Below are positions 6,154 to 22,295 of a DNA stretch of 64,000 bases, piece by piece. The notes beneath the pieces are model-generated. The model did not search any database. It had not been told where the DNA came from and saw only the letters and a program-made list of their open reading frames with translations. How positions within the stretch are numbered: the stretch's first letter is position 1; every line of letters starts with the position of its first letter. The stretch covers positions 217 to 64,216 of the forward strand of contig JACREU010000091.1 of assembly GCA_016212705.1 (NCBI GenBank), written 5' to 3'. This DNA is from Deltaproteobacteria bacterium. GTDB taxonomy: Bacteria; Desulfobacterota; GWC2-55-46. Made by a program: the position numbers and the translations under genes.

Positions 6154-6157
6154 GTTT

Positions 6158-7783
6158 GTGATAAGGCCCTGTAAAATCATACCCGCCCTTGTTGTCGTTG
6201 CCGCGGTCTTCGCGGTCTACGCGCAGACGCTTCAAAACGGCTTCGTCTACGACGACAACCACATCATACTCGCCAACGAGTGGATAAGGGACCTTGCGCG
6301 CATCCCGGATATACTCACGTCTTCGACCATATTCGCGGACCCGGCGCGCTCCGCCTCAAACACATACAGGCCGCTCCTCTTCCTCGTATTCATGGCCGAG
6401 CAATTCGTATTCGGGCTTGAGTCCCCCTGGGGCTTTCACCTCGTGAACGTCTCCTTGCTTGCGCTTAACGGCTGTCTCCTTTACGGGATAGCATCGATGC
6501 TGTTTGCGAAGGATGAGGAGGGACATGCCTCCGGTTACGGGTTTTTGCCTCCGCTCCTCGCCTCTCTTGTCTTTACGCTCCATACGATAAATTCAGAGGC
6601 CGCCAACTGGGCGTCCGCCCAGGCGGAGCTCCTTTTTACGGCCCTCTTCCTCGCCGCCTTCTGGATATATACGAAAGGCGGGAGAGAGGCGGTTGGGAGG
6701 GTAGCCGTTTCCGTTCTTGTCTATTTCTTAGCCCTCCTTGTCAAGGAGACTGCGATAATACTCCCGGCGCTCCTCTTCGCCTTCGACCTCATCCATGACG
6801 GCAGAAGGATATTCAAGAGGGCGTTCAATTACGCGATATTCTTCGGCGCGGCGGTAGTGTATATGGCCATAAGGACTTACGCCGTCGGCGGCGTCATCCA
6901 GCACAGGCAGGCGCCGTTAACCGGCGTAGAGCTCGTGATAAATATATTCCCGCTCGTCTTTCAATACGCCTGGAAGCTCGTCTACCCGACGGGCTTATCA
7001 GCGCTCTACGAGCTCCATGCGATAAAGTCGTTTGACCTGAACGCCGCGGCGGGCATCGCGGTGACAGCGGCCTTTGTCGCGGCGTTCGTCGTATTCAGGA
7101 GAAGGCGCGCGGTCTTCCTCGGGCTCATCATGATGGGGCTCCCGTTGCTCCCCGTGCTCTACATCCCCGCGTTGTCCACGTCCGCCTCAGCCGACAGGTA
7201 CATGTACCTGCCGACCGCCGGGTTCGGCATCATCGTCGGCTGTATAGTTGAGGCTGTCTTCAGGGGGAAGCTAAAGGCCGCTTTTTCCGTAGCTATTATC
7301 GCCGTCATGATAGCGGTCACTGCCGCTTACGCGTTTGCTTCCTTTGAAAGGGTTGCCGTATGGAGGGACGACTTCGCCCTCTGGTCGGATACCGTCAGGA
7401 AGTCGCCGGGGAGCAGGTACGCGCATTATAACCTCGCGCTCGCGTACCAGGACAGGGGCGATCTTGATAACGCCATAGTAGAGTTCAAGGCGGCGATAAA
7501 GGCCGCCCCCGGCTACGAGGACGCCCACTACAATCTCGCGTGGTGCTACCAGTCAAAAGGTGATAGCATTAACGCGGCCGTCCACTACAGGGAGGTCCTG
7601 AGGCTCGATCCAGGCTCCGCGGACGCGCACTACAACCTCGGGCTCATATACAGGGGTGAATCGTTTTTTGATGAGGCGGCTTTCGAGTTCAGGGAGGCGC
7701 TCCGGCTGAAACCCGGCTATGCCGAGGCAACAGGGGCCCTTGCGGAGATTCCAGGGGCCATTGGAGGGGTTACTGCGCGATGA
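6158..7783 (+). CDS. GT-C type membrane glycosyltransferase (PMT_2/TMTC-like) with C-terminal TPR repeats, paralogue 2
   Basis: LQNGFVYDDNHII, YRPLLFL, WGFHLVNV and LLVKETA motifs. C-terminal TPRs (AHYNLALAYQDRGD...). Confidence 0.7.
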   Translation: MIRPCKIIPALVVVAAVFAVYAQTLQNGFVYDDNHIILANEWIRDLARIPDILTSSTIFADPARSASNTYRPLLFLVFMAEQFVFGLESPWGFHLVNVSLLALNGCLLYGIASMLFAKDEEGHASGYGFLPPLLASLVFTLHTINSEAANWASAQAELLFTALFLAAFWIYTKGGREAVGRVAVSVLVYFLALLVKETAIILPALLFAFDLIHDGRRIFKRAFNYAIFFGAAVVYMAIRTYAVGGVIQHRQAPLTGVELVINIFPLVFQYAWKLVYPTGLSALYELHAIKSFDLNAAAGIAVTAAFVAAFVVFRRRRAVFLGLIMMGLPLLPVLYIPALSTSASADRYMYLPTAGFGIIVGCIVEAVFRGKLKAAFSVAIIAVMIAVTAAYAFASFERVAVWRDDFALWSDTVRKSPGSRYAHYNLALAYQDRGDLDNAIVEFKAAIKAAPGYEDAHYNLAWCYQSKGDSINAAVHYREVLRLDPGSADAHYNLGLIYRGESFFDEAAFEFREALRLKPGYAEATGALAEIPGAIGGVTAR

Positions 7784-8526
7784 AGAACGGCAAGGTGCTC
7801 TCCGTCATAATGCCTTCGTACAACGAGGGCGCGCACATCCGGAAGAACGTCGTTGAAACATGGGAGACGCTCGAGAAGGTCTGGGGCGATTCTTTCGAGA
7901 TAATAGTAGTCGACGACGGGAGCTCTGACAATACCCACGCGGAGGCACTGGCCGCTTCAAATATGCGCTCGCGCGTAAAGGTCGTCCATTACGCTGATAA
8001 CCGCGGCAAGGGCGGGGCGCTGAAGGAGGGGTTCAGGAACGCGGCTGGAGACTATATTGCCTTCCTGGACGCGGACCTCGACCTCCACCCCTCTCAGATA
8101 CCGGCGCTATTCAAGGTGATGGAGGAAAGCGGGGCCCAGGTAGTGATAGGGTCCAAGCACCACCCCTCTTCCGCCCTCAAGTACCCCGTGCGCCGGAGGA
8201 TAATTAGCAGGGTATACGCAACAGCTCTGAAGTTCCTCTTCAAGCTCCCCGTCCGGGACACGCAGACCGGGATCAAGATATTCAAGGCCGAGGTGCTTAA
8301 AAGGATATTCCCGAGGGTCGTCTGCGCGAGGTACGCCTACGACCTCGAGATACTCGCAAACGCGCACCGTCTCGGCTACACGATAGCCGAGACGCCGATA
8401 GTCCTTAACTTCCAGAGGGTCGCAAAATGGGGGAGGATAAGGACGAGAGACCTCTACCTCGCGGGAATGGACACGCTCGCCATATTTTACAGGATGTACT
8501 TTACTCGGCACTACAAGGGGATCTGA
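7780..8526 (+). CDS. family 2 glycosyltransferase, polyprenyl-phosphate mannose/glucose synthase-like (DPM1/GtrB-like, soluble form)
   Basis: SVIMPSYNEG...IIVVDDGSSDNT...FLDADLD (GT2 DxD). 248 aa with no C-terminal TM segments. Start overlaps the upstream stop (ATGA). Confidence 0.75.
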   Translation: MKNGKVLSVIMPSYNEGAHIRKNVVETWETLEKVWGDSFEIIVVDDGSSDNTHAEALAASNMRSRVKVVHYADNRGKGGALKEGFRNAAGDYIAFLDADLDLHPSQIPALFKVMEESGAQVVIGSKHHPSSALKYPVRRRIISRVYATALKFLFKLPVRDTQTGIKIFKAEVLKRIFPRVVCARYAYDLEILANAHRLGYTIAETPIVLNFQRVAKWGRIRTRDLYLAGMDTLAIFYRMYFTRHYKGI

Positions 8527-8532
8527 CGCGCC

Positions 8533-10281
8533 ATGCGCTCTGAAAGGGGGCTTAGACTGTTCTTTATCGCGATAGCCGCGCTCGTCTCATTCGCGGTCTA
8601 CGCTAACACCCTTGGGAACGGGTTCGTCTACGACGACCACCTGCAGATAGAGAAGAACGTCTGGCTCGTGTCCTTCTCCAGCATACCCGATATACTCACA
8701 AGCCATGTCTACGGTTTCAAGCAGGAGATCAAGGTAACGGGCTCATACAGGCCGCTATTCATGCTCGTCTATCTCTTCGAATACGCCGCATTCGGAATGA
8801 AACCCTGGGGCTGGCACCTCGTGAACGTCTCCCTCCACGCCGTTTCCGTTATAATGGTATTTCTCATAGCCGATACCCTGACAAGAGGACGACGCGCAGA
8901 GGCCGGGGCGCCGCAGGTAAGGCTCGTAGCCCCGTTCATAGCCTCTCTCCTCTTCGCCGTTCACCCGGCGCACAACGAGCCGGTGGCGTGGGTCGCCTGC
9001 GTCCCGGACCTCTCGTACACGGCGCTCTACCTCGTTGCGTTATATATTTCCATAAGGTCTACGCGCGCCTTAGCCGTTGTACCGGCGATCATTTATCTCA
9101 TCGCCCTCCTTTTTAAAGAGACGGCTGTTACGCTCCCCCTTGCGGTATTCGCCTGCGACAGGCTCATTGCCGAAGAAAAGACGGACAGCCTCAGGCGTTA
9201 CCTCCCATTCGTTGCGGCGCTCGCATTATATCTGGCCTTCCGGCGCTTGTTCCTCGGCGGCCTCGCGGGCGCGCCCTCGATGCACCCGTATATGGACGCG
9301 GGCATGACAGTCATAAACGCCGTCATATTCTTTGCCGGATATCTCCGCGCGCTCGTCTTCCCTTATTGGTTCGAGCCCTTCAGAGTATTCGCCCCGGCTG
9401 TCTCGATGGCGGATCCGAGGTTCATATCCGGCGCGCTCGCCGTATCAGCCGTCATAGCGGCGGTCATATACTGCCGTAAAAGGCACCCGCTCTCGGCGTT
9501 CTCACTTATCTTTTTTTCGATCGCCATACTCCCAGCGCTCTACATACCGGGCCTCAGCCAGAACCCGTTCGCCGAGAGGCAGGCCTATCTGCCCTCTGCC
9601 GGGCTCGCGATAGGGGCTGCGGCAGTTTCGTCCCGAATGATCGGTGAGAGGGTTTCGCGCGCAGTCCTCGCGCTCGCGCTCCTTCTCGTGATTACATCCG
9701 TCCTCTCATACGCCGCTATAACTCGTAACTTCGCCTGGAAAGACGACCTCTCCATCTGGACCGCCTCGGCGGTCTCTCAGGAAGGCAATTATCTCGCCTC
9801 GCACAATATCGCCGTTGAGCGCGTGATAGCAGGGGAAGCCGGCTCCGCCATATTCGATTACAGGGAATCGATACGGATGAACAAGGAGAGAGTATTCCCG
9901 GATGAAAAGACCCTTGTGCTGTCGAACCTGTATCTCGGAAAGATATACGCGGGCAAGGGCCTGCAGAGGGAGGCTGTTGCAAGGTTTAAGGAGGCCTTAC
10001 GGCTCAAGCCTGACCTCCCGGAGGCCCGTTTAGACCTCGCGCGCGCGCTGGAGGCGTCCGGCGACCCCGCGGGGGCGGTTATCGAATACAACAGGGCGCT
10101 CGGTCTGCCCTGGAGGAGGGAGGACCTCAAGGCCATATACAGGGACCTCGGCAGGACGCTTGCCGGACTCGGCATGCATGATGACGCGCTTCTGAGCCTC
10201 GAAGAGGCCCTGAAGCTCGACCCCGACGACGCGGATACGGCAAGGGACCTCGCGCTCGCAAGGAGGTTGTCCGGGAGATGA
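8533..10281 (+). CDS. GT-C type membrane glycosyltransferase (PMT_2/TMTC-like) with C-terminal TPR repeats, paralogue 3
   Basis: LGNGFVYDDHLQI, YRPLFML, WGWHLVNV and LLFKETA motifs. TPR-like C-terminus. Confidence 0.7.
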   Translation: MRSERGLRLFFIAIAALVSFAVYANTLGNGFVYDDHLQIEKNVWLVSFSSIPDILTSHVYGFKQEIKVTGSYRPLFMLVYLFEYAAFGMKPWGWHLVNVSLHAVSVIMVFLIADTLTRGRRAEAGAPQVRLVAPFIASLLFAVHPAHNEPVAWVACVPDLSYTALYLVALYISIRSTRALAVVPAIIYLIALLFKETAVTLPLAVFACDRLIAEEKTDSLRRYLPFVAALALYLAFRRLFLGGLAGAPSMHPYMDAGMTVINAVIFFAGYLRALVFPYWFEPFRVFAPAVSMADPRFISGALAVSAVIAAVIYCRKRHPLSAFSLIFFSIAILPALYIPGLSQNPFAERQAYLPSAGLAIGAAAVSSRMIGERVSRAVLALALLLVITSVLSYAAITRNFAWKDDLSIWTASAVSQEGNYLASHNIAVERVIAGEAGSAIFDYRESIRMNKERVFPDEKTLVLSNLYLGKIYAGKGLQREAVARFKEALRLKPDLPEARLDLARALEASGDPAGAVIEYNRALGLPWRREDLKAIYRDLGRTLAGLGMHDDALLSLEEALKLDPDDADTARDLALARRLSGR

Positions 10282-12008
10282 ACGGAAGGCTTAAACTCCT
10301 CCTTTTCGCGCTCGCCCTCGTAGCGGCCTCTTTTGCCGTTTACCACGCCACACTCTGGAACTCCTTCGTCTACGACGACGCGGAGCAGGTATTGAGGAAC
10401 CGCTGGATCACGGATTCGGGGTATTTAAAGGAGATATTCACCTCCCACACGTTCGGCTTCTCGGAATCCAGCTACCAGGCTATCTCCTACAGGCCTCTCT
10501 TCCTGGCCTTCTATATGGCCGAGTACGCCGTCTTCGGCCTTGAGCCGTGGGGGTGGCACCTTGTGAACATAATCCTCCACTCGGCAAACGCCGTAATCGC
10601 GTTCCTTCTCATAAGGCGGCTCATCGGAGCGGATGAGGAAGGGGCGTCCTTCGCCGCCTTTGCCGGAGCCCTCGTATTCACGGTCCTTCCGGCGGGGAGC
10701 GAGGTGGTCTCGTGGGTCGGGTGCGTCCCTGAGCTCTTATATACCTTTCTCTGTCTCGTTTCTTTTTATGTATACGCGGGGGCCGGCAAGGGGGTCGTAA
10801 GGGTCGTCGTTTCGGTTTTCTTTTATTTCATCGCGGCCTTCACGAAGGAGACCGCCATAATATTCCCGTTCTTTTTTTACGTGTATGATTCGCTCCGCGA
10901 GGGTTGGGTCCCTGGTCTCTCCCGCGTAAAAAGGTACGTCCCTTTTGCGGCGGCGGCAGTTGCCTACATCGGCATAAAATCCGCGCTACTCGGCCACATA
11001 GCCGCGCCCGTTCGGATACACACGGACCTTAAAGCGGCGGACTTCCTCGCAAGCGCCCCGTATCTTTTCGTTGAGTACCTGAGGGCGCTCGTATTCCCCG
11101 AGGGCGTCTACCCCCTTCAGCCCTTTGCGCCGATACCCTTCTTCGGCGCGGAGTTCATACTCTCGGCCCTGGGCATCGTTGCGCTCTCAGCCTTCTGTTT
11201 TTACTTTCGAAAGAGGTTCGGCAGGTTAACCCTCCTCGCCTTCGCGATATTAGTCGTGCCGCTTCTGCCGGCGCTCTACGCCCCGGCCATAAGCAGGACC
11301 CCTTTTGCCGAGAGATACCTGTATCTCCCGTCCGTCGGGTTAGCGCTCCTTATAGCCCTTGCCTTCCAAAGGGGCCTGCTCTATTCGGCTGTCTGGCGGA
11401 AAGCGCTTATTATCGCGCTCGCCGTCGTCTCGGCCTTTTACTCCGTCTGGTCGTACAAAAAGTCCCTCAACTGGAGGGATGACAGGGCCCTGTGGGAAGC
11501 ATCGCTCAAGGGGGGGCCGGGAAACCATCTCGCGCTGCATTCGCTGGGGTACATCGATTTCAAGGAGGGCAGGGACATTGAGGCGATAGAGAAGTTATCG
11601 CAGGCGCTTAAATACAACCTTGAGGGGATCCACCCTGACCCGACGATGGTCCTCCTTACGAGGAAGGTTCTCGCCAACGCGTACCAGAGGGGAGGCTTGA
11701 GTGACCGTGCGGTAATTGAGTACGAGGAGGTCTTAAGGTACGAGCCCGAGGACCCTGTCGCAGGCTTCAACCTTGGGACTATATACGAGGGGATGGGCCG
11801 CCCCGGCGACGCGATAGAACTCTATGAAAAGGCGCTTTACTTCGCGAAAAGGCCGGAGCTTCTGAGGGAGATTATCTTAAGGCTCGGAGAAGGTTATGCA
11901 AGGACCGGGCGCGCAACTGAGGCGCGTGCCTTATATGAGAGGGGCGCGGAGGCGTTCCCCGGAGACCCCGAGTTCCGGCAAAGGGCCCGCGCCCTCCCCG
12001 CGCGTTAG
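10278..12008 (+). CDS. GT-C type membrane glycosyltransferase (PMT_2/TMTC-like) with C-terminal TPR repeats, paralogue 4
   Basis: LWNSFVYDDAEQV, YRPLFLA, WGWHLVNI and AFTKETA motifs. TPR-like C-terminus. 4-nt overlap with paralogue 3. Confidence 0.7.
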   Translation: MNGRLKLLLFALALVAASFAVYHATLWNSFVYDDAEQVLRNRWITDSGYLKEIFTSHTFGFSESSYQAISYRPLFLAFYMAEYAVFGLEPWGWHLVNIILHSANAVIAFLLIRRLIGADEEGASFAAFAGALVFTVLPAGSEVVSWVGCVPELLYTFLCLVSFYVYAGAGKGVVRVVVSVFFYFIAAFTKETAIIFPFFFYVYDSLREGWVPGLSRVKRYVPFAAAAVAYIGIKSALLGHIAAPVRIHTDLKAADFLASAPYLFVEYLRALVFPEGVYPLQPFAPIPFFGAEFILSALGIVALSAFCFYFRKRFGRLTLLAFAILVVPLLPALYAPAISRTPFAERYLYLPSVGLALLIALAFQRGLLYSAVWRKALIIALAVVSAFYSVWSYKKSLNWRDDRALWEASLKGGPGNHLALHSLGYIDFKEGRDIEAIEKLSQALKYNLEGIHPDPTMVLLTRKVLANAYQRGGLSDRAVIEYEEVLRYEPEDPVAGFNLGTIYEGMGRPGDAIELYEKALYFAKRPELLREIILRLGEGYARTGRATEARALYERGAEAFPGDPEFRQRARALPAR

Positions 12009-12132: not shown

Positions 12133-12954
12133 ATGGCTTCTGAAAGAACAGACTCTAATCCGATGAGCTCAACCCGCGAAAAGCTGGCCCACATGTTCTC
12201 CAAGGTCATGGCAGGGACGGTCACGAGGGAAGAGGGGACGATGCTCCTCAACCACCTCGTAAAGGAGGACCATGCAGGTACGGTAAAGGAGCTCGCCTAT
12301 CTTATCGACTACCCGCCCCCTGGCGTTTTCCCCAAGACCATACTCCACACCATAGCGCTTTCGAGGAACAAGGCCTTCTACAACATAATGGTAGGGAGCC
12401 TCGAGCACAAGAACGAGGAGGTCTCGATACTCGCGGCCCAGGAGCTCGCCAGGCTCAAGACCTCGGACGCGAAGGTCGTGCTCGTCGAACACCTGAACAG
12501 CGAGGTATACCACGTAAGAAAGGCTTCAGCGATAGCGCTCGTAGATGGGTTGACCGACGGGATTGATATCGTCAGAAGACACCTCATGGACCAGGCAGAG
12601 CCTTTTTACAGATCCACTTCCGCGCTGGCGCTCCTTACAGGCGGCAGGAAGGGTATGGAGGCGCTCCTCGCCATTCTCAATTCCGGCGAGCCGGGCCCCG
12701 TGTCCACGGCCGCTGAGGCGGTAATGGGGGCGTCTTCCAGGCTTGACGCGGGAGACATACCAAAGGTCTTCGAGGCGTTGATGCTCGCCGGCGACAGGAA
12801 GGACTCAAGGACGATTATAGAGCTTCTGAAGGTGGCGACGGCGCTCGGAGGCAGGGCGAGGGGGTTCGATGGCTATGTGCAGGCCTTCATCGACTACCCG
12901 TTCGACGCGGTGAGGAACGAAGCCGTGGACGCGCTCCGTGTGATCAGGGCTTGA
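12133..12954 (+). CDS. HEAT/PBS-lyase-like repeat protein
   Basis: Repeated approx. 30-aa helical units (SILAAQELARLK..., VRKASAIALVD..., VRNEAVDALRV). Start chosen at the ATG at 12133 rather than the 12073 extension. Confidence 0.5.
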   Translation: MASERTDSNPMSSTREKLAHMFSKVMAGTVTREEGTMLLNHLVKEDHAGTVKELAYLIDYPPPGVFPKTILHTIALSRNKAFYNIMVGSLEHKNEEVSILAAQELARLKTSDAKVVLVEHLNSEVYHVRKASAIALVDGLTDGIDIVRRHLMDQAEPFYRSTSALALLTGGRKGMEALLAILNSGEPGPVSTAAEAVMGASSRLDAGDIPKVFEALMLAGDRKDSRTIIELLKVATALGGRARGFDGYVQAFIDYPFDAVRNEAVDALRVIRA

Positions 12955-13765
12955 ACCTTGTCCGCCTCAGGCCTTCAGCGGCCTCGAAGAGGAGCGGGTC
13001 CAGCCCCTGCGCGGTTTCGTATTCTTCTGCGGCGCGTATATGCTCGCCCGACATTTCAAACGCCTTCCCGAGCCCGTTATGGGCCTCGGCGGAGCCGGGG
13101 GCAAGCTCGACGGCACGGGAAAGGTTCTCGATGGCTGAGGCCGGGTCTTTCTTGATGATGAACGCCTCCCCGATCAGCCTGTGGGCGTCCGCGTAATCCG
13201 GCCTGTACCTTAACGCCGTTCTGTATTCCCCGATCGCCTCATCCAGCAAGCCCGTATCCCTGTAAAGATACCCCAGGTTAATGAGCGTCTTCACGTGAGA
13301 GGGTTTTATGCCGAGGGCCGTCCTGTATTCCTTAAGCGCCTCCGGGAACCTGCCCTTCGTGTAATAGGCGTATCCGAGGTTGTTGCGGGCCTCGACTATG
13401 TCGGGTTTGAGCGCAAGGGCGATCTCGTACTTTTCAATGGCTTCGTCTATCCTTCCCCATGTGTGGAATATCGCCCCGATGTTGAAGTACGCCTTCCCGT
13501 AATACGGGTATATCCCGATGGCCAGCAAGTTTTCCTCGAGCGCGCGGTCGAGGTCGCCGTTTCCGGCAAGCACCGTAGCGTAGTTGTAATGCGGGCGGGC
13601 CTTTGACGGGGATTTGCCGACGACGTCCGCCCAGAGCGTCTCCGGGCTCTTCCAGACCGAATTCCTGTTGAACGATATGAAGGCGAGCGCGATGATGGCC
13701 GCCGCAAGCGCGAGCGATGGGAGGGGGGACTGGTCGGTCCGGGCTGTTGGGCCGTTTACGCTCAT
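12944..13765 (-). CDS. membrane-anchored TPR repeat protein
   Basis: N-terminal TM segment (LALAAAIIALAFISF) followed by about 6 TPR units (YYGKAYFNIGAIF..., ARNNLGYAYY...). Its start overlaps the stop of the upstream OMP gene (TAATG). Confidence 0.7.
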   Translation of the reverse strand: MSVNGPTARTDQSPLPSLALAAAIIALAFISFNRNSVWKSPETLWADVVGKSPSKARPHYNYATVLAGNGDLDRALEENLLAIGIYPYYGKAYFNIGAIFHTWGRIDEAIEKYEIALALKPDIVEARNNLGYAYYTKGRFPEALKEYRTALGIKPSHVKTLINLGYLYRDTGLLDEAIGEYRTALRYRPDYADAHRLIGEAFIIKKDPASAIENLSRAVELAPGSAEAHNGLGKAFEMSGEHIRAAEEYETAQGLDPLLFEAAEGLRRTRFKP

Positions 13766-15774
13766 TACCAGACCCTCACGAAGACCCTTGTGGCCCTGAA
13801 TAGCAGCGAGGCCTCCTTCGTCTCGGTATTGCTCTCGACCGTGTACGTGTTCTTCTGTTCGAGACCGAGGAACCAGGCCCTCAGGGGATAGGTGAGGGAG
13901 TTGGTGAACGAAGTAGTGTCCTTGTCCGACTCAGAGCTCAGCTTCTGTGTGACCGAGAAGGTCGCCTGCCAGTTTAGGTTGTTGTAGAACTTCCTCGTGT
14001 ACTGGGTGAGGAACTGCAGGTCCCTTATAGTGTCGGAGCCGCCCTCAAATTCGGTGTCCATCAGCGTGTAGTAGAGCGAGAGGCTCAGCGACCCCTTGAA
14101 AAGGGGCCTGTTGTGCCCGACGGAGGCCCCGACGGAGTCGTTCTGTCCCGACCCGCTAACCCCGCTGAATGTGCTCGATCGTTCAGCGTAGCCCATGAGG
14201 TTGAAGTTCTTGAAGTAGGCGGAAGTGGCGTCGAGCCTGTACGTCTCGCTCTTGCTCCCGGTTATATCGATATAGGACTCGGTTACGGATTTGTTGAATG
14301 AGGCGTTAATGAGGACGTACTGTTTCCAGAGCTTGTTGAAGGCGTTGGCGTTGTAGTTACTTGAATGGGAGAATATGTCCTGGCCGGCGAGCGTGTAGGT
14401 GTCGGCGCGCGAGAAGCCTGCGCCGAAGCCGACGTACTTGTTTACGTCTATGTTGCCGAGCGACGCGTTGAAGCTGTGCTCGAGGCCCTGCCCGGTGCTG
14501 AAGCCCTCGGCCTTGTCCTCTATGTAGCCAAGCCCCCAGCCTGCCCCCAGCACGGCCCAGGAAAGCGCCTTCGAGTAGCTCAGCCTGGAGGTCGCCCTGA
14601 GCGTTGTCCTGTCGCCGGTCGTTGCGGACGTATCCGAGGCCGTGTCGGTCGTCGTTGTGTCAGTGGTGGTGTCGGTCGTGTCCGTCGTGTCCGTGGTTGA
14701 GGCGGCCGAGGTGTTGGCGTTTGTCTTGTAATCGGAATACGACACCGATTCCGAGGCCATGAGGTTATCCGTGAGCCTGAGGTTTACGCCGCCGCCCACG
14801 CCGAATGACTCGGTTTCGGAATCCGAGGTCGAAGAGTCGCTCTTTACGGTGCCGAGGCTGACGGAGAGGCTCGCGTCCGCCCTCTTCGATATCTTGTAGC
14901 CCATGTCGCCGGAGTAGGTGGTCCCTATCTGCTCGTCGCCGTCGGTTGAGTTCCTGTAGTAGGAGTACCTGTGGTCCTGCTTGAAGTCCTCGCTCGGCTT
15001 GGAGTTGAGGAGGAGGCTTAAGCCTTCGAGGCTCGTATTGGCGTCCGAGTCGGTCTCGGTAGAGGCGGAACGGCTGAGCGTGGCGCCCGCGTATATCTGG
15101 GTGCTCTTGGATATCTTTGTGAGGTTGTTGGCGTTAAAGGTGGCGGTCGACGATTCCGTGCCGTCGGTCGAGCCGCTCGTCGAGTACTGCATCGTCGCAT
15201 CGTTCACCGTCGGGCCGATGTCCTTCTTCAATATGACCTTGTAGTTGCCGGTCTCCGTATCGAGGCCTTCCGACTCCGAGAGCGTCCTCTCGGCGTAGAG
15301 AGAGGTCTGAGGCAGGGTCCGGAGTTTCAAAAACCAGTTGAGGCCGTAGGTAGTCTTTATCGTTTCCGCAGTGCTCGACTCGTCCACGGTCCTCTGTCCG
15401 TATAGGGAGAGAGGTATGGCGGATTTCGGGAGCGCCGTCGTGCGGAAGTAATAGCCGGTAGAGCGAGTCGTGACGTCGCTGGCATCCGACGAATAGTCGC
15501 TGTTCGTGAAGGACACCCCGGCGTCGTAGATTAAGAGCCTCCTCGACAGGAAGTTGCCCTTCAAGTCCAGTGTGTATGTCTGCTGGAAGCGGGCCGATTC
15601 CGACCCTATTCCGTTCTGCTCGGCCGCGGACTCCTCGAACTCGAACAAGACCTGTCCAACGAGGGACTTGTAGATGTACGGGTCCTCCTCGACCGCGTAG
15701 CCTCTTTGAGGCGCAAAGAGGAGAGCGGCGACGGCGGCTGTTGCGGCAACGAGCGCCAGTTTGTTGCGGAGCAT
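13765..15774 (-). CDS. large outer-membrane beta-barrel protein (putative)
   Basis: Sec signal (AAVAALLFAPQRGYA). Alternating-hydrophobic, Ser/Thr/Tyr/Gly-rich strands throughout. C-terminal ...VFVRVW aromatic end typical of OMPs. Internal Thr/Asp low-complexity loop. Confidence 0.6.
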   Translation of the reverse strand: MLRNKLALVAATAAVAALLFAPQRGYAVEEDPYIYKSLVGQVLFEFEESAAEQNGIGSESARFQQTYTLDLKGNFLSRRLLIYDAGVSFTNSDYSSDASDVTTRSTGYYFRTTALPKSAIPLSLYGQRTVDESSTAETIKTTYGLNWFLKLRTLPQTSLYAERTLSESEGLDTETGNYKVILKKDIGPTVNDATMQYSTSGSTDGTESSTATFNANNLTKISKSTQIYAGATLSRSASTETDSDANTSLEGLSLLLNSKPSEDFKQDHRYSYYRNSTDGDEQIGTTYSGDMGYKISKRADASLSVSLGTVKSDSSTSDSETESFGVGGGVNLRLTDNLMASESVSYSDYKTNANTSAASTTDTTDTTDTTTDTTTTDTASDTSATTGDRTTLRATSRLSYSKALSWAVLGAGWGLGYIEDKAEGFSTGQGLEHSFNASLGNIDVNKYVGFGAGFSRADTYTLAGQDIFSHSSNYNANAFNKLWKQYVLINASFNKSVTESYIDITGSKSETYRLDATSAYFKNFNLMGYAERSSTFSGVSGSGQNDSVGASVGHNRPLFKGSLSLSLYYTLMDTEFEGGSDTIRDLQFLTQYTRKFYNNLNWQATFSVTQKLSSESDKDTTSFTNSLTYPLRAWFLGLEQKNTYTVESNTETKEASLLFRATRVFVRVW
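14612..14712 (-). repeat. Thr/Asp-rich low-complexity tract (TTDTTDTTDTTTDTTTTDTASDTSATTGD) encoded by degenerate ACN-GAC trinucleotide repeats
   Basis: Visible in the DNA as gtcggtcgtgtccgtcgtgtccgtggt-type repeats inside the OMP gene. Confidence 0.7.
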
Positions 15775-15969: not shown

Positions 15970-16761
15970 TTACCAGGCGCACCTGAACCCCACGTCGTCG
16001 TAACGTCTTTCGGGGGGCGCGGCGTTCCTGAAAGGCGCCCTGACGTAGACCTGGAGCGAGTAGTGGCCCATGCCGCCCCATCCGCCGCCGCGGACCACCT
16101 TGAGCTTCTCCCCGTAATCAGGGTCCTTGAACTCGTTATTCGGGTACGGTTTGTACCAGTCCGACGTCCACTCCTGCGCGTTGCCGGACATGTCATAGGC
16201 GCCGTAGGGGCCGACCCCGTCCTTGAGCGTGCCTACCGGGAGGGTGCCGCCGTACTCGCCTATGGTGTTGACCTTCTTTATGTCGAAGTCGTTGCCCCAG
16301 GGGAAAATCCTCCCGTCCGCGCCTCTGGCGGCCTTCTCCCACTCCGCTTCCGACGGTAGCCTCCGCCCCTTCCACTTGCAGTACTCATCGGCGTCCGCCC
16401 ATGTCACGAATACCACGGGATGGTCGGAGAGGTTCGCCGGATACGACCCCGCGGACCACTGCGGCGGAGCGGTCCGCCTGGTGGCGTCTACGAACTCCTT
16501 GTACTGTCTGTTCGTCACCTCGGTCCTGTCGATATGGAACGTATCGAGTTTTATCTTCCTCTCGGGCCTCTCGTTCGCGTACCAGGGGCGCCTGTCGCCG
16601 TACTGCATGGCCTTGGCCTCCCTGTCCACCTCGTTACTGCCGATCGTGAACTCGCCCCCCGGGACCTTCACCATGTCCTCGGGCGCTGATTGGCACCCAA
16701 CGAGGGCGAGAGAGAGTGACGTAAGGATCAAATAACCGGCATTCTTTACGGAGCGCATCAA
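15970..16761 (-). CDS. FGE-sulfatase (SUMF1/EgtB/PvdO-like) domain lipoprotein
   Basis: Lipobox LALVGCQ. Motifs RLPSEAEWEKAARG, WTSDWYKPYP, VRGGGW and GFRCAW. Lacks the Cx4C active-site pair of true FGEs. Confidence 0.75.
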   Translation of the reverse strand: MMRSVKNAGYLILTSLSLALVGCQSAPEDMVKVPGGEFTIGSNEVDREAKAMQYGDRRPWYANERPERKIKLDTFHIDRTEVTNRQYKEFVDATRRTAPPQWSAGSYPANLSDHPVVFVTWADADEYCKWKGRRLPSEAEWEKAARGADGRIFPWGNDFDIKKVNTIGEYGGTLPVGTLKDGVGPYGAYDMSGNAQEWTSDWYKPYPNNEFKDPDYGEKLKVVRGGGWGGMGHYSLQVYVRAPFRNAAPPERRYDDVGFRCAW

Positions 16762-16848: not shown

Positions 16849-18417
16849 TCAGTCCAGGACGATCTCCCGGTCCGACGTCGCAATAACGCTGAAGCGGAAC
16901 CGCTCCCTGGTCTTGAAGTCCTGGAAATCCACAGGGTTGAAGTCGTCCGTAAAAAGCGTCTCTCCAAGGGGAAGCTCTATTTTCCTTGAAAGGAGCGCCC
17001 TTACGTCCTCCTCGAACGCTGGATGAACCCTGGCTTCGTAGGAGTCATTTATCGGCCGCTCGACGAGGGTCGCCGCGAATATCATGTTCACTACCCTTGG
17101 GGCGGGGGCGGAATACTCAACCGACGTGTAGACGTCGATACGGGGGAAGACCTCCTTCAAGGTCCGCAGGAGCGACGAGGGGGCCGCGAGGTCCTCCGGC
17201 ATATTCGACCCGACGAAGTTTATTATAAGGACCCCGTCTACTGCGAGCCTTTTTCTGACGAGCTTGAACGCCTCCAGGCTTATGAGGTGGCTCGGTGGCG
17301 TATCCCCTGAGAACGCGTCGAGGACTATTATGTCGTAAGGCTCCGTTGACGCGTTGAGGAAGTACCGGCCGTCCTCGATGAACGTCGGGTGGAGCGACTT
17401 GTCATAGGCGAAGTACCTGGCCGCCGTCAGAACGACCGAGGGGTTTATCTCCACTACGTCGGTCTTTATGCCGTAGAGCTTATGCAGCCTGTTCGGTACG
17501 ATGCCGCTCCCGAGCCCTATGACAAGGGCGCGCTTTGCCGAAGGGTTGTAAGCGCGCGAGAGCTTCTCGATGTAGTACGTGTACTTGGAGACCGAAAGCC
17601 CGGTCCTCAAGTCGACGGCGCCCTGTATCATGTTCTCAAGAAGGAACTCGCGGACCAATTGGTCTCCGTAGGTGTAATCGACGACCTTTATCTGCCCGTA
17701 GGCGCTGTCCTCGTTTACGACGAGAGCGGCCTTTGTGCCGTCGGGCCTGACGACGGACGGGAGGTCCTTCGGGAAAAGAAGGAGGACTAACGGCACCGCG
17801 ACGACCGCCAGGGCGTAGGCCTTTCTCCTGAACAGGAGCCAGTAGAGCGCCCCGATCAGGATGAGGGACGCCGACGAGAGGTAGATTATGTTATTGACGC
17901 CGATATTCGGTATGAGGATAAAGCCGGTGGATACGGTGCCGACGAAGCTCCCGGCGGTCGATACCGCGTAGAGCCAGCCGACGGTCCTCCCGATCCCGTC
18001 CCTCCCGTCGCCCATGTAGAGCTTGACGGTGTACGGCGCGACCATGCCGAGTAAAAATAGCGGCGGGCCGAAGAGGACGGTCGAGCTTACGAGCGACCCG
18101 GCGCGCAGGCCCAGGGACAGGGAGAGACCTATGACAGTCCCCTTTATGACCGGGACCGCGAGAAGGGAGAGCCCGGCGAGGAAAATGACCGTAAAGAGCG
18201 CGCCGTGGCTCCCGTATCGGTCCGCGAGCCTGCCGCCCAGCCAGTAGCCTAACGCGAGCGATACGAGCGTTACGGTTATGAGCGAGGTCCAGACGAAGAG
18301 GCTCACGCCGAAAGGCGGTCCGATGACCCTTGAGCCGATGAGCTCGACGACCATTACTATCGAGCCGCACGCGAAGGCGGTGAAGACGAGGTATTTGTTC
18401 GAGCCTTCCCCTTTCAT
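16849..18417 (-). CDS. fused polytopic membrane domain / spermidine-synthase-like (SpeE-like) protein
   Basis: About 7 N-terminal TM segments. C-terminal SAM-MTase/aminopropyltransferase-like motifs: ALVIGLGSGIV and DIIVLDAFSGD. Confidence 0.65.
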   Translation of the reverse strand: MKGEGSNKYLVFTAFACGSIVMVVELIGSRVIGPPFGVSLFVWTSLITVTLVSLALGYWLGGRLADRYGSHGALFTVIFLAGLSLLAVPVIKGTVIGLSLSLGLRAGSLVSSTVLFGPPLFLLGMVAPYTVKLYMGDGRDGIGRTVGWLYAVSTAGSFVGTVSTGFILIPNIGVNNIIYLSSASLILIGALYWLLFRRKAYALAVVAVPLVLLLFPKDLPSVVRPDGTKAALVVNEDSAYGQIKVVDYTYGDQLVREFLLENMIQGAVDLRTGLSVSKYTYYIEKLSRAYNPSAKRALVIGLGSGIVPNRLHKLYGIKTDVVEINPSVVLTAARYFAYDKSLHPTFIEDGRYFLNASTEPYDIIVLDAFSGDTPPSHLISLEAFKLVRKRLAVDGVLIINFVGSNMPEDLAAPSSLLRTLKEVFPRIDVYTSVEYSAPAPRVVNMIFAATLVERPINDSYEARVHPAFEEDVRALLSRKIELPLGETLFTDDFNPVDFQDFKTRERFRFSVIATSDREIVLD

Positions 18418-18432
18418 CTCATCGCGGGCCTT

Positions 18433-19425
18433 TTATTTTTTGTCATTCGCGCACCGGAACCCGAAGTTGTTGTTCTTCGTGGTCGGGTGGAAGAATATCC
18501 TGTTGTAGTTCGGGGAGCTTATCCCGCACTTGTACGTGGTGCAGTCGTACCAGGAGCCGCCCTTCAACACCTTGTACTTTTCCCCGTAGTTCTCGTCGGG
18601 GTGGGTGTTCCCGGGGTAGGGTTTGAACCAGCTGTCCGTCCACTCGAATGCGTTGCCGGCCATGTCGTAGAGGCCGTAAGGGCTCTTGCCGCTCTCGAAG
18701 GACCCGATCGGTAGCGTGTCCTCGTGCCCGTACTGCGGCGTGTTACCCTTTTCCTTGGCGAACTTGTCGCCCCAGGGGAATGTCCTCTTGTCAACGCCTC
18801 TGGCGGCCTTTTCCCATTCCTCCTCGGAGGGAAGGCGCTTGCCCTCCCATCTGCAGAAGTTGTCCGCGTCCTTCCATGTCACATATACGACAGGGTGGTC
18901 CTTCTTGCCCTCCGGAATATTCCCGTCCTTCCAGTGGTCCGGGGCAGGGTAGCCTGCGGCGTCGACGAAGGCCTTATAGCGCGCATTTGTTACCTCGTAT
19001 CTGTCGATGTAGAAGGCCCCGACCATCCTTGAATGCTCCGGCTGGCTCTTGGGCCACCATTCATTCGACCCCATGGTGAACTCCCCGGCAGGGATGAGCA
19101 CCATCCCCTTTGGGGCGGCCCCCTTTACCGCGCCCTTGCCGGAAGCAACGGCAAGGGTCTCGGCGTACCTGTCTATTTCATTCCGCTCCGAGGGGTCCCT
19201 GAACCTCCCGTTTATCTCCACATAGTTGTCGCTTAAGCCCGGGCCGTGGCACTCCGCGCAGGTCTCGTCCCTGGTGTAGTCCGTCGAGTACCGCCTGTCC
19301 GGCGTGTGGCAGTCCATGCACTTGGGCTCGCCTGTGGCCGGGTCGTAGTCGCTCGCCGCGCCGTAAGCGGACGTTGCGAGCGCGCAGAGGGAGACGGCAA
19401 CGGCTGATAAGAGTAGTCTTTTCAT
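18433..19425 (-). CDS. diheme c-type cytochrome fused to an FGE-sulfatase domain
   Basis: Signal peptide. Two CxxCH motifs (CMDCH, CAECH) in the N-terminal 60 aa. FGE-domain motifs follow: RLPSEEEWEKAARG, WTDSWFKPYP, LKGGSW, then C-TTYK-C (Cx4C) and GFRCAN. Confidence 0.75.
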   Translation of the reverse strand: MKRLLLSAVAVSLCALATSAYGAASDYDPATGEPKCMDCHTPDRRYSTDYTRDETCAECHGPGLSDNYVEINGRFRDPSERNEIDRYAETLAVASGKGAVKGAAPKGMVLIPAGEFTMGSNEWWPKSQPEHSRMVGAFYIDRYEVTNARYKAFVDAAGYPAPDHWKDGNIPEGKKDHPVVYVTWKDADNFCRWEGKRLPSEEEWEKAARGVDKRTFPWGDKFAKEKGNTPQYGHEDTLPIGSFESGKSPYGLYDMAGNAFEWTDSWFKPYPGNTHPDENYGEKYKVLKGGSWYDCTTYKCGISSPNYNRIFFHPTTKNNNFGFRCANDKK

Positions 19426-19453: not shown

Positions 19454-19903
19454 TTATTTCGGGGCGGCCTTGCCCTCGCGTTCGAGCTGTCTTATGAACG
19501 CGAGCACGTCCCATCTCTCTTTTTCGGACAATATCTCCTGCCACCTCGGCATGGACATCGACTCTCCGCCGACCTCTTTGTGTATCCCCTCTGTTATGGA
19601 TTTAAAGAGCTCGGCGTCGGTCTTCGACATCCTCTTCGCGTCGTTTACGAAATCAGCCGGGTGAGGTGAGAGGGCTATGCCCACTGGCCCGTCGCCCATG
19701 CCCTTTTGCCCGTGGCAGAAGTGGCAGTACCTGAAGTATATATCCCTGCCCGCCGTTGCTTCGCCGGCTCCTGCCTGCATGGCCTGAGCCGCGGCCGGCG
19801 GCTTTTCAGGCTGAGGGGGGCTCTTTTTCTCGCCGGTGCATCCGGATACGGAAAGAAGCGCCGCAAGGGAGGCGGCTATGGTTATCGCGAGCGGCTTCTG
19901 CAT
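19454..19903 (-). CDS. monoheme class I c-type cytochrome lipoprotein
   Basis: Lipobox LSVSGC. Single CHFCH motif with a distal Met candidate (SMSMP). 149 aa. Confidence 0.75.
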   Translation of the reverse strand: MQKPLAITIAASLAALLSVSGCTGEKKSPPQPEKPPAAAQAMQAGAGEATAGRDIYFRYCHFCHGQKGMGDGPVGIALSPHPADFVNDAKRMSKTDAELFKSITEGIHKEVGGESMSMPRWQEILSEKERWDVLAFIRQLEREGKAAPK

Positions 19904-19954: not shown

Positions 19955-20950
19955 TCATTTAAGGGGTGTTACGAACTCGACCTTGGAGGAATCGCGCAGG
20001 CTTTTGAGCCATCCGCTCCAGAGCCTCTTGTACTCCTTGGCTTCGAGCTCCTTTTCGAGTTTTTCCTTGTTGAGCTCCTCGAACTTCTTCTGCACCGCAG
20101 GCTTGCTTCCCTCGAGCCTTATGACATGGTAGCCGTAAATTGACATGACCGGTCCGCCGACCTCGCCGGCCTTGAGCTTCGAGGCGGCGTCGTCTATCTC
20201 AGGTATTAGCTCGCCCTTGTGCGACCAGCCCATGTCGCCGCCATTTTTAGCGAACGGGTCCTCGGAGTTCTTCTCGGCGAGCTTGGCGAAGTCCTCGCCC
20301 GCCTTCGCCTTCTCCGCTAAATCCTTCGCCTTCTTGAGCGACTCGTTCCAGACCTTCTGGCCGCCTGAAGGGTCTGCCTTGACGAGTATGGACCTTAAGT
20401 GTATCTGCTCGGGCTCCTTGAACTTCGGGAGGTTCTTCTGATAGTAGTCCTTCATGAAGGCCTCGTCGACGGTCTTTTCCGAGAGCTTCTTTGTTTCCTC
20501 AGTTTTTTTCTTGGCGAGCCTCTCAACGACCATGTCCCTCTTGAAGTCCTCCTTCAAGTCGGCGAGCGTAATCCCGCTCCTCTTCAAGACCTTCTCAATG
20601 GTCTCGCCCTTCGGGAGCTTCTTCTTGAGTTCCTTGACCCTCGCGTCTATTTCCTTAGGGTCTACGTCGTCCTGTTTCGTTTCAACTGCGGCCTTGTACA
20701 TGAGCTCGTTGTTTATGAGCTTATCGAGCGCCTGCCTCTGTATCTCCCTCATCCGTTCGTCGGAGACCGACTGGTGATATGTCATGAGAGGGAGGAGGTT
20801 GCTTGTGGCGGTATCCAGGGTCTCCCTCGTTATGACCTTTCCGTTCACCTTTACTATCACGTCCGCCGGCGAAGTGGCCGCGAACGACGCCGGGGCGAGG
20901 AGCGCGACAAAGACGGCTGTGGCGAGGAGCCTTTTTGAAAAGCTTGACAT
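19955..20950 (-). CDS. parvulin-type peptidyl-prolyl cis-trans isomerase (SurA/PrsA-like chaperone)
   Basis: Signal peptide. SurA-like N-terminal region. Parvulin motifs: HLRSILV...GGDMGW...GYHVIRLEG. Confidence 0.7.
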   Translation of the reverse strand: MSSFSKRLLATAVFVALLAPASFAATSPADVIVKVNGKVITRETLDTATSNLLPLMTYHQSVSDERMREIQRQALDKLINNELMYKAAVETKQDDVDPKEIDARVKELKKKLPKGETIEKVLKRSGITLADLKEDFKRDMVVERLAKKKTEETKKLSEKTVDEAFMKDYYQKNLPKFKEPEQIHLRSILVKADPSGGQKVWNESLKKAKDLAEKAKAGEDFAKLAEKNSEDPFAKNGGDMGWSHKGELIPEIDDAASKLKAGEVGGPVMSIYGYHVIRLEGSKPAVQKKFEELNKEKLEKELEAKEYKRLWSGWLKSLRDSSKVEFVTPLK

Positions 20951-21404: not shown

Positions 21405-22295
21405 TTACTTCTGGTGGCAGGTTCTGCAGAGACCAGAACCGGTGTTGCCGCCGACCCTTCTAAGGAACAGGCCGTTGGACTCAGCTTCCTGGTCCGCGGT
21501 CACGTTCGAGTAGGTGGAGTCGATTTCCTGCCAAGACTTGTTGTTGAAGTGCGGATCGTGGCAGCTGGAGCACTCAACCTTGGAGGACCTGAGGAGGTCG
21601 GCGATCGTCGCCGAGTTGGAGACGAAGCCCTTTACCGCCCAGAGGTTCTTGGTGAGGTTGCCGTTGTCGTAGGTCGCGGCAGAGGTGTTGAGCTCAGAGG
21701 TAAGGTCGATACCGCTGATGGTTACGTTGGTGGCCCTCAGACCAGCGGCCGTCCCGGCGGCATAGGTCACGGAAACCGGGTGGTCGTTGGAGAGGTTAAG
21801 GCCGATGTTCAACCTGCTGGAGGTCATGAAGTCGGAGACGACTGACCCGAAGTCATAGAAGGTGTAGCCACGGTCCGAACCGCCGTTGACGACGCCGGAC
21901 TTACCAGGGGCGTTGACAATGTTGTCGAAGGTGGTTACGCCGTCATGGCATGAAAGACAGGCAAGCGAAGTCGAGCCGATGTCGGTGTTGAGGATCGAGG
22001 TACCCGCGATCGTCGAGCCATAGGCCGTGAAGGATGTCGGAGCGGAGGTGCCCCTGTTCCACATCGGCTTAAGGTTGTTGGCGGTGTTGGTGTGGTGAGG
22101 CGTGTGACAGAATACGCAGACTTCGGTCGTGCCCTGGGCGCCGATGTGCATCGAGAAGCCGCCGAGGTTGTGCCTGGAAGACGCGATGCCTGACGCGGCG
22201 TCGCCGTTGGCGTAGGTGTCAACTGCTGAAGCTGTACCGGCGGTGATGAAACCGATTGAGGCGACCGCTACTGCGATTGCGAGAAACCTTTTCAT
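21405..22295 (-). CDS. secreted tetraheme c-type cytochrome (doubled-CXXCH family)
   Basis: Sec signal (TASA/VD). Four CxxCH motifs: CVFCHTPHH, CLSCH, CSSCHDPH, CRTCH. SRHNL precedes heme 1 as in paired-CXXCH proteins. Gly/Ser/Thr/Asn-rich. Good RBS (AAAGGAG). Confidence 0.85.
   Translation of the reverse strand: MKRFLAIAVAVASIGFITAGTASAVDTYANGDAASGIASSRHNLGGFSMHIGAQGTTEVCVFCHTPHHTNTANNLKPMWNRGTSAPTSFTAYGSTIAGTSILNTDIGSTSLACLSCHDGVTTFDNIVNAPGKSGVVNGGSDRGYTFYDFGSVVSDFMTSSRLNIGLNLSNDHPVSVTYAAGTAAGLRATNVTISGIDLTSELNTSAATYDNGNLTKNLWAVKGFVSNSATIADLLRSSKVECSSCHDPHFNNKSWQEIDSTYSNVTADQEAESNGLFLRRVGGNTGSGLCRTCHQK

Follow-up and report, generated by a model that had tools for sequence, protein, structure and literature searches.

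We analyzed a 64,000-nucleotide (nt) stretch of DNA, hereafter the window, from contig JACREU010000091.1 of a deltaproteobacterial metagenome-assembled genome (MAG; GenBank assembly GCA_016212705.1). Our subject is a gene on its minus strand that encodes a 330-amino-acid (aa) protein in which an N-terminal diheme cytochrome c arm is fused to a domain with the fold of formylglycine-generating enzyme (FGE). This fusion protein falls in the FGE superfamily; its architecture is new, and its function probably is too. It has a conserved pair of cysteines at the position of the Cu(I)-binding cysteines of FGE, it belongs to a large, uncharacterised family, and it is not a sulfatase maturase. The features of the gene and its surroundings are collected in Table 1.

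Table 1. Features of the fusion gene and its neighbours in the window
Feature	Position (nt)	Strand	Evidence or remark
Diheme cytochrome c/FGE-fold fusion, 330 aa	18433..19425	-	Open reading frame (ORF); PF03781 E=8.4e-59; 120 full-length homologues, 56-98% identity
Signal peptide, aa 1-22, predicted cleavage between AYG and AA	19360..19425	-	Read from sequence
Heme-binding motif 1, C36-M-D-C39-H40	19306..19320	-	C36, C39, H40 invariant in family alignment; in 120/120 homologues
Heme-binding motif 2, C56-A-E-C59-H60	19246..19260	-	C56, C59, H60 invariant; 20 residues past motif 1 in nearly all homologues
FGE-sulfatase (SUMF1-like) domain, aa 106-326	18448..19110	-	PF03781 E=8.4e-59; PDB and Foldseek matches
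Active-site-loop equivalent G289-G-S-W-Y-D-C295-T-T-Y-K-C300-G-I-S-S-P-N-Y-N-R309	18499..18561	-	Conservation; alignment to bacterial FGEs
C295	18541-18543	-	
C300	18526-18528	-	
Class I monoheme cytochrome c lipoprotein (CHFCH)	19454..19903	-	PF13442/PF00034; 29 nt upstream of fusion gene
Fused major facilitator superfamily (MFS)/spermidine-synthase-like membrane protein	16849..18417	-	NF037959 241 bits (cut-off 40); 16 nt downstream of fusion gene
Cys-less FGE-fold lipoprotein paralogue, lipobox LALVGC	15970..16761	-	PF03781 E=6e-57; G-H-Y at aa 232-234, nt 16060-16068
SurA-like peptidyl-prolyl isomerase (PPIase), probable first operon gene	19955..20950	-	Rotamase and SurA_N domains
669-aa Cys-free protein, candidate outer-membrane barrel	13765-15774	-	No Pfam/NCBIfam match
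Tetratricopeptide repeat (TPR) protein, operon end	12944-13765	-	TPR families
OmcE-type tetraheme cytochrome (nanowire subunit homologue), separate upstream transcription unit	21405..22295	-	PDB 7TFS E=1.4e-15; 9YUQ E=1.9e-12
Strong terminator-like hairpin, 13-bp GC-rich stem and T-run	21374-21345	-	3' of OmcE-like gene
Two promoter-like sites	21119-21090, 21015-20986	-	Upstream of PPIase gene

The fusion protein begins with 22 residues (MKRLLLSAVAVSLCALATSAYG, followed by AAS) that, read by eye, have an n/h/c layout (MKR, then a hydrophobic core) with A at -3 and G at -1, which is typical of a Sec-type signal cut by signal peptidase I. In the family alignment this N-terminus is variable and hydrophobic, and conservation begins at D26/Y27. 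The original prediction, made from the window's sequence, had described two N-terminal CxxCH motifs, and these are CMDCH (aa 36-40) and CAECH (aa 56-60). Both lie C-terminal of the predicted cleavage site and so are kept in the mature protein. No lipobox was found in the fusion protein. Two hemes would thus be bound covalently on an arm of about 40 residues at the N-terminus of a periplasmic protein. Matches to Cytochrom_c3_2 (E=0.0014) and Cytochrome_C7 (E=0.008) were weak and under the Pfam cut-offs.

The rest of the protein had been described as an FGE-sulfatase domain ending with a Cx4C loop and FGFRCAN, which both the ORF translation and the PF03781 match bear out. The C-terminal tail reads LKGGSWYDC295TTYKC300GISSPNYNR309IFFHPTTKNNNFGFRC325AN. 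By sequence, the human, Streptomyces coelicolor and Thermomonospora curvata FGEs in the PDB were matched with E values of 1e-24 to 1e-32. A Foldseek search with an AlphaFold2 model returned CalU17, ToxD and FGEs, with a probability of 1.0 to FGE structures and a TM score of about 0.5, the model being poor, and so bears out membership of the superfamily and nothing finer. No NCBIfam equivalog came near its cut-off. EgtB scored 121 bits (cut-off 360) and SenA 119 (cut-off 420), with the match confined to the C-terminal FGE-like part; a full-length match to EgtB, OvoA or SenA that includes their N-terminal DinB-like iron domain was not found. TIGR03525 (GldK) gave 109.4 bits vs a cut-off of 350.

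To place C295 and C300 relative to FGE we relied on profile alignments. Aligned to human FGE by phmmer and with the family profile, they paired with C341/C346 by way of a four-residue gap and a six-residue insertion. Human FGE has three cysteines spaced five apart (C336, C341 and C346), and this third Cys of the eukaryotic enzyme makes the human alignment ambiguous. We rejected the C341/C346 pairing because the bacterial FGE profile and the R-x12-GFR spacing both point to C336/C341. Eighty bacterial FGE loci were fetched for that profile, of which 70 gave usable sequences; these read GGSYLCH.SYCNRYRVAAR and have no third Cys. When the family (55 sequences) was compared with the 70-FGE profile using hhalign, C295 fell on the first catalytic Cys and C300 on the second, and this pairing was the same under -glob, -mact 0.01, -mact 0.5 and -norealign. 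An hmmsearch with the FGE hidden Markov model (HMM) aligned GGSyl.ChesYCnr.YrvaaR with GGSWYdCTTYKCGIsSPNYNR, with two single-residue insertions, and put R309 on the conserved Arg (R349 in human FGE). R309 also fell in the superfamily R-x12-GFR column when the protein was aligned by MAFFT with about 70 generic FGE-fold domains. The equivalence of the loops rests on these profile alignments and not on structural superposition, the loop having a predicted local distance difference test score (pLDDT) below 50. By these alignments C295 and C300 are positionally equivalent to the two cysteines that are Cu(I) ligands in FGE (PMC5324649; PMC6676471), and the original prediction was right that the Cx4C spacing and position are those of the catalytic pair.

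The pair and the heme motifs are conserved together. A homologue search over 5.8 billion proteins gave thousands of FGE-domain matches, and we analyzed the best 120. They are full-length, share 56-98% identity with the window's protein, and were found in MAGs of Thermodesulfobacteriota/'Deltaproteobacteria' and Nitrospirota. Both CxxCH motifs and the loop [KR]GGSWYDCT.YKCGIS.P.YN[RK] are kept in 119 of the 120. In the 55-sequence alignment, which spans at least three clades, C295, Y298, C300, G301, S303 and N308 are invariant, and P305 (54/55) and R309 (52/55) nearly so. Searches of whole genomes and of representative sequences added more distant clades, with clade 2 reading WWDCMFYGCGISAP, clade 3 reading YDCLSYGCGLSSP, and two further outliers. 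One of these outliers, from another metagenome (P0198), has CLLKCH (Cx3CH) in place of the first CxxCH and keeps the second motif and the Cys loop (YNCLYYNCGISAP). Among 150 representatives of clusters at 50% identity, 8 have both hemes and the Cys loop and 136 have neither. The exceptions are three with the loop only, two of them apparently truncated, and three with the hemes only, two of which are truncated family members. The only intact heme-less member, P0200, is a lipoprotein that keeps the full loop, and its gene follows that of a 19-heme cytochrome. This co-occurrence marks one clade and is not evidence from independent events. Public annotations of these proteins are generic ('formylglycine-generating enzyme family protein', even 'hercynylcysteine S-oxide synthase'), and our literature searches found no description of an FGE-cytochrome fusion.

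The AlphaFold2 run used a 44-sequence family alignment, was made without cofactors, and had a mean pLDDT of 64.8. Values fell under 50 at aa 39-61, 123-127 and 270-311, which correspond to the heme arm, WWPKS, THPDENYG and the Cys loop. All of these stretches are invariant in the clade of the window's protein; conservation extends to every clade for the heme motifs and the Cys loop alone. Such low values are what would be expected if these parts of the protein fold around cofactors that are absent from the model. The family alignment shows no His or Met conserved in the heme arm besides the CxxCH histidines, and the FGE domain has no family-specific distal His or Met that spans the clades, the conserved ones (M108, M118 and H177) being superfamily-wide.

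Several results indicate that the fusion protein does not mature sulfatases. The diheme family has a gap opposite about 40 columns of the FGE profile, among them those of the consensus pWW, and a second gap opposite about 13 columns; FGE HMM positions 77-127 are unmatched, vs 11 query residues. The bacterial FGE signature CH.SYC.RYR does not occur in the family, which reads GGSWYDCT.YKCGIS.P.YNR, and the His after the first FGE Cys is replaced by Thr. S291 matches the FGE Ser (S266 in T. curvata FGE, tcFGE), and the position of tcFGE W228 is occupied by Trp in most family members and by F260 in the window protein. In a maximum-likelihood tree of 86 domains, the diheme family (support 100/98) and the true FGEs (100/99) are separate groups with generic Cys-less domains between them. 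An approximately unbiased (AU) test rejected diheme proteins and FGEs as one clade (p=0.012), a grouping that was named after the tree had been seen. Because this joint clade is rejected, the Cys pair may be convergent. The earlier statement that the domain 'retains' the FGE cysteines therefore stands for their position and not for descent from FGE. Overall similarity to FGE is not specific either, because the Cys-less paralogue at 15970-16761 scores nearly as high against FGE structures (E=4e-29).

The genome also appears to hold no client for such an enzyme. The host MAG (1.98 Mb) is 86% complete, so the absence of a sulfatase client is not absolute. It encodes four PF03781 proteins and one true PF00884 sulfatase-family protein, the product of 33250-34947 in the window. 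This protein has W-T-L-P-A-Y at the nucleophile position and not C/S-x-P-x-R, in agreement with the earlier observation that the only sulfatase-like gene of the window has a Thr nucleophile, and it is the sole true PF00884 protein genome-wide. A second PF00884 match in the genome was set aside since, read from its sequence, it appears to be a phosphoglycerate-mutase-like protein. A genome-wide scan for C-x-P-x-R, a check that had been suggested with the original prediction, gave 10 hits, mostly low-complexity ORFs resembling wrong frames, and no credible protein among them. With no C/S-x-P-x-R client in the genome, the caution that the substrate might not be a sulfatase was well placed.

We compared the genes around homologues of the fusion gene. 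The constant core is a trio of monoheme cytochrome c, diheme-FGE protein and FGE-fold lipoprotein. An FGE-fold lipoprotein gene is near the fusion gene in every locus examined and directly downstream in most. The monoheme cytochrome c, which had been singled out as an adjacent electron donor, recurs with the lipoprotein in the three main clades: its orthologues are directly upstream in L007, L009 and L011, homologues are present in clade 2 loci, and in the clade 3 loci L108 and L109 the gene lies alongside in divergent orientation. It is thus a conserved partner in the main clades but not in the outlying loci L110 and L111, where the lipoprotein is kept and no monoheme cytochrome gene was found beside it. 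Clade 2 loci have only the cytochrome c, the diheme-FGE protein and two FGE-fold lipoproteins. In clade 3 the fusion gene comes directly after that of UbiA (4-hydroxybenzoate polyprenyltransferase; TIGR01474 293.9 bits, above cut-off), which is fused to the diheme-FGE protein in L108 (3876-5714, 612 aa) and overlaps it by 4 nt in L109 (1001-2955), with an FGE-fold paralogue alongside; in L108, genes for cytochrome b and a bd-type oxidase lie nearby as well. The fusion and the overlap tie the family to an enzymatic pathway context. The OmcE neighbourhood seen in the window is clade-specific.

The partner lipoproteins share a feature of their own. The paralogue of the window had been reported to lack the Cys pair, and its loop indeed reads GGGWGGMGHYSL (GGGWGGMGHY) where the fusion protein has CxxxxC. 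GH[YF] or THRF is present in the Cys-loop equivalent of all 17 partner lipoproteins examined (13 loci; the window, L007, L009, L011, L016-L022, L025, L026 and L108-L111). Because the fusion protein has no distal His that spans the clades, we speculate that this His is a candidate heme or metal ligand in a heterocomplex of the two proteins.

Two side observations concern clade 2. The C-termini of its monoheme cytochromes c carry L-C-x-C-Q-[YF] (CGC, CKC or CNC; L025:12033-12452, L026:11346-11822, L027:11635-12057), a motif that the cytochrome of the window does not have. At L025:3429-9220 the module is directly adjoined by a heavy-metal efflux system, with a CusA/CzcA-family resistance-nodulation-division (RND) protein (1290 bits), an adaptor resembling CusB and an outer-membrane factor resembling TolC. 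We did not use this efflux system as evidence of a link to copper, as it occurs in this one clade 2 genome and not at the other clade 2 loci.

In the window, the genes from the PPIase to the TPR protein probably form one operon, apart from the nanowire unit, because a terminator-like hairpin and promoter-like sites lie between them. Genes for an NHL beta-propeller lipoprotein and a c7-type triheme cytochrome lie beyond the OmcE-type gene. The block from the c7 gene to that of a 906-aa protein is syntenic in three other genomes (L007, L009 and L011), with orthologues 28-73% identical. The PPIase, 669-aa and TPR orthologues are syntenic in all three, and the MFS/spermidine-synthase-like protein has orthologues in L007 and L009 and none in L011. 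The 906-aa protein itself (window 1341-4061, minus strand) has no Pfam or NCBIfam match and is 50-57% identical at the far end of the block in the same three genomes. Genes for PMT_2-type GT-C glycosyltransferases, many of which carry TPR repeats, occur by the module in three clades (window 4249-12008, L025:12515-14685, L111:3713-5794), and L025 additionally has a PAP2 phosphatase. The recurrence of GT-C genes may be chance or may reflect a link to glycosylation of the envelope or nanowire (PMC13712944).

Elsewhere in the host genome are three genes for homologues of heme-copper-oxidase subunit I and one for a bd-type oxidase-like protein (C13:107402-108694, C21:29596-30966, C121:1124-2323, C43:12486-13187). 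These genes indicate that O2 chemistry and copper handling are available to the host. From its gene content, this groundwater 'deltaproteobacterium' with a genome of about 2 Mb is probably not a strict anaerobe.

Taken together, we propose that the fusion protein is a cytochrome-c-linked redox enzyme with a Cys2 centre, possibly containing Cu, that acts on a substrate other than a sulfatase. We consider this proposal about as likely to be right as wrong. Electrons would pass between the respiratory chain and the Cys2 centre of the FGE domain, with the class I cytochrome c and the pair of hemes as carriers in between. That centre might be a bis-thiolate Cu(I) site of the FGE kind or else a dithiol that undergoes redox change, and the enzyme would oxidise its non-sulfatase substrate together with the His-loop FGE-fold partner. 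Two hemes fit the two electrons that FGE chemistry involves, whichever way they flow. Because the PPIase-to-TPR envelope operon lies beside an OmcE-type nanowire gene, the client in this genome is probably a component of the cell envelope or of extracellular electron transfer.

A number of points weigh against this proposal. Neighbouring periplasmic cysteines often form a simple disulfide, and FGE-fold lipoproteins such as PorK/GldK are structural and not catalytic. Canonical FGE uses the substrate's thiolate as its third Cu ligand; the exported proteins of this operon offer no free Cys, every cysteine in them belonging to a signal peptide, a lipobox or a heme motif. A universally conserved distal heme ligand was not found across the clades. 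The tree puts the diheme family in a polytomy with the Cys-less lipoproteins that are its partners, and not with the FGEs. Residues of the FGE Cu(I)-site pocket are only partly present in the family. I302 takes the place, two residues past the second Cys, of tcFGE R276, a second-sphere Arg that contacts the substrate thiolate (PMC6676471). The missing insert of about 40 residues would, from the alignment, carry the PWW and the substrate-groove residues, those named for the peptide groove of tcFGE being W84, F86, M99, A101, W108 and W109 (PMC6676471). With both the second-sphere Arg and this insert missing, an FGE-like O2-activating pocket is not assured.

The main rival to an enzymatic role is that the fusion protein is a structural or electron-relay scaffold. 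In that case the FGE fold, which is C-type-lectin-like, would be a binding module as in PorK/GldK and GldJ, the diheme-FGE protein and the lipoprotein would dock under the 669-aa outer-membrane protein, the hemes would relay electrons from periplasmic cytochromes to the OmcE filament, and C295-C300 would be a structural disulfide stiffening a long loop. We think this somewhat unlikely. The PorK/GldK and GldJ models are partial matches (GldK 109 bits; PorK structures 9MZU/9OTS about 1e-15), the FGE-fold paralogue is a lipoprotein, and the family branches with Cys-less paralogues. An OmcE homologue is immediately upstream, the operon has a TPR protein and a large Cys-free protein without a family match, and OmcE clusters have been described with a large beta-barrel thought to be a secretion pore or anchor (PMC13712944). 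However, clades 2 and 3 have the three-gene module without OmcE, barrel or PPIase, and in clade 3 it is beside or fused to UbiA. The Geobacter sulfurreducens-type OmcE clusters in PMC13712944 list no FGE-fold genes, two hemes are too few to span the outer membrane, and the (near-)invariance of D294, C295, Y298, C300, G301, S303, P305 and N308 at about 45% identity exceeds what a disulfide staple needs.

The same cysteines might instead be axial heme ligands (His/Cys, as in TsdA, SoxAX and DsrJ), with the FGE domain supplying the distal side of the heme pocket, which would make the protein a low-potential cytochrome reactive with sulfur or thiols, or a redox sensor. Distal ligands are otherwise unaccounted for, given the lack of a conserved His or Met in the arm and of a family-specific His in the FGE domain; the hemes and the Cys loop co-occur, and both were left unmodelled by AlphaFold2. 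We nevertheless regard His/Cys ligation as quite improbable, since the complete loop is also present in P0200, a lipoprotein without hemes, since it lies where FGE has its metal-binding loop, and since the partner lipoprotein's His or Met108/Met118 could be the distal ligands. Finally, the protein could be a genuine FGE that makes formylglycine in a type I sulfatase, its hemes taking the role that a thiol reductant plays in vitro. For this speak the positional equivalence of the Cys pair, the match of S291 to tcFGE S266, the Trp at the W228 position of most members, and the fact that FGE is the best-scoring solved relative. This reading is nonetheless highly improbable, because the genome has no CxPxR/SxPxR sulfatase and its sole PF00884 protein has a Thr nucleophile, the family has neither the substrate-groove insert nor the CH.SYC.RYR signature and is outside the FGE clade, and the Cys-less paralogue does nearly as well against the same structures.

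The proposal of a cytochrome-c-linked Cys2 enzyme can be taken further. The trio may be a hitherto unrecognised class of periplasmic enzyme in which a bis-thiolate Cu(I) centre like that of FGE, perhaps with the loop His of the partner completing it, is wired to the respiratory chain by a covalently tethered two-heme arm. This fuller version is unlikely. The centre might receive two electrons for O2 activation and act as an oxygenase or oxidase, or it might pass two electrons from the substrate to the hemes in an FGE-like oxidation without O2. The membrane or envelope substrate would differ between clades, and could be a prenylated quinone precursor in proteins fused to UbiA and a component of the OmcE nanowire or the envelope in the window.

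As a comparison with known systems, FGE itself (human SUMF1 1Y1E; S. coelicolor 2Q17/6MUJ; T. curvata 5NXL/6S07) has the same PF03781 fold, with a GGS strand followed by a Cys-x4-Cys loop, a Ser before the loop, and an Arg 12 residues before GFRC. In both proteins each turnover takes, or could take, two electrons from outside. The fusion protein differs in its two N-terminal c-type hemes and in one-residue insertions before and after the Cys pair. It also lacks the His past the first Cys, the Arg two past the second, and the inserts of about 40 and 13 residues, falls outside the FGE clade (AU p=0.012), and has no sulfatase client in its genome. The pairing of a Cys-bearing FGE-fold protein with a Cys-less paralogue resembles that of FGE with pFGE/SUMF2 (1Y4J), and SUMF2 has been reported to associate with SUMF1. 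Here, by contrast, the putative partner is a bacterial lipoprotein of the same operon with GHY, a conserved His, in its loop. PorK/GldK and GldJ of the type IX secretion (T9SS) ring are also FGE-fold proteins of the Gram-negative envelope, lipoprotein-anchored (as is only the paralogue here) and encoded with outer-membrane components. PorK, however, has neither hemes nor the Cys pair, the GldK score is far under its cut-off (109 vs 350), and no T9SS genes were found in the neighbourhood of the fusion gene. OmcE clusters (G. sulfurreducens 7TFS; Desulfuromonas soudanensis 9YUQ; PMC13712944) resemble the window's locus, which has a tetraheme OmcE homologue, an NHL propeller lipoprotein, a c7 triheme cytochrome, a large protein that may be an outer-membrane component, and genes for TPR proteins and GT-C glycosyltransferases. 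The described clusters differ in listing no FGE-fold genes, class I cytochrome c or PPIase (PMC13712944), and in other clades the diheme-FGE module is found with no OmcE.

No enzyme family other than FGE is so far known to activate O2 at a mononuclear bis-thiolate Cu(I) site, and it is still unclear which electron donor FGE uses physiologically (PMC5324649, PMC6676471, PMC12123546). The family described here puts the FGE Cys pair beside two hemes and a dedicated cytochrome c, and so would offer a direct, testable case of a respiratory chain supplying electrons to such a site or taking them from it. FGE-type chemistry would then reach further than the maturation of sulfatases. Members of the family are common among the uncultured Thermodesulfobacteriota and Nitrospirota of groundwater and sediment. 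Because its neighbours include an OmcE-type nanowire and UbiA-dependent quinone biosynthesis, it is a candidate for missing steps in either. Should it prove to be a scaffold and nothing else, it would still point to an accessory module of nanowire loci that has not been described before.

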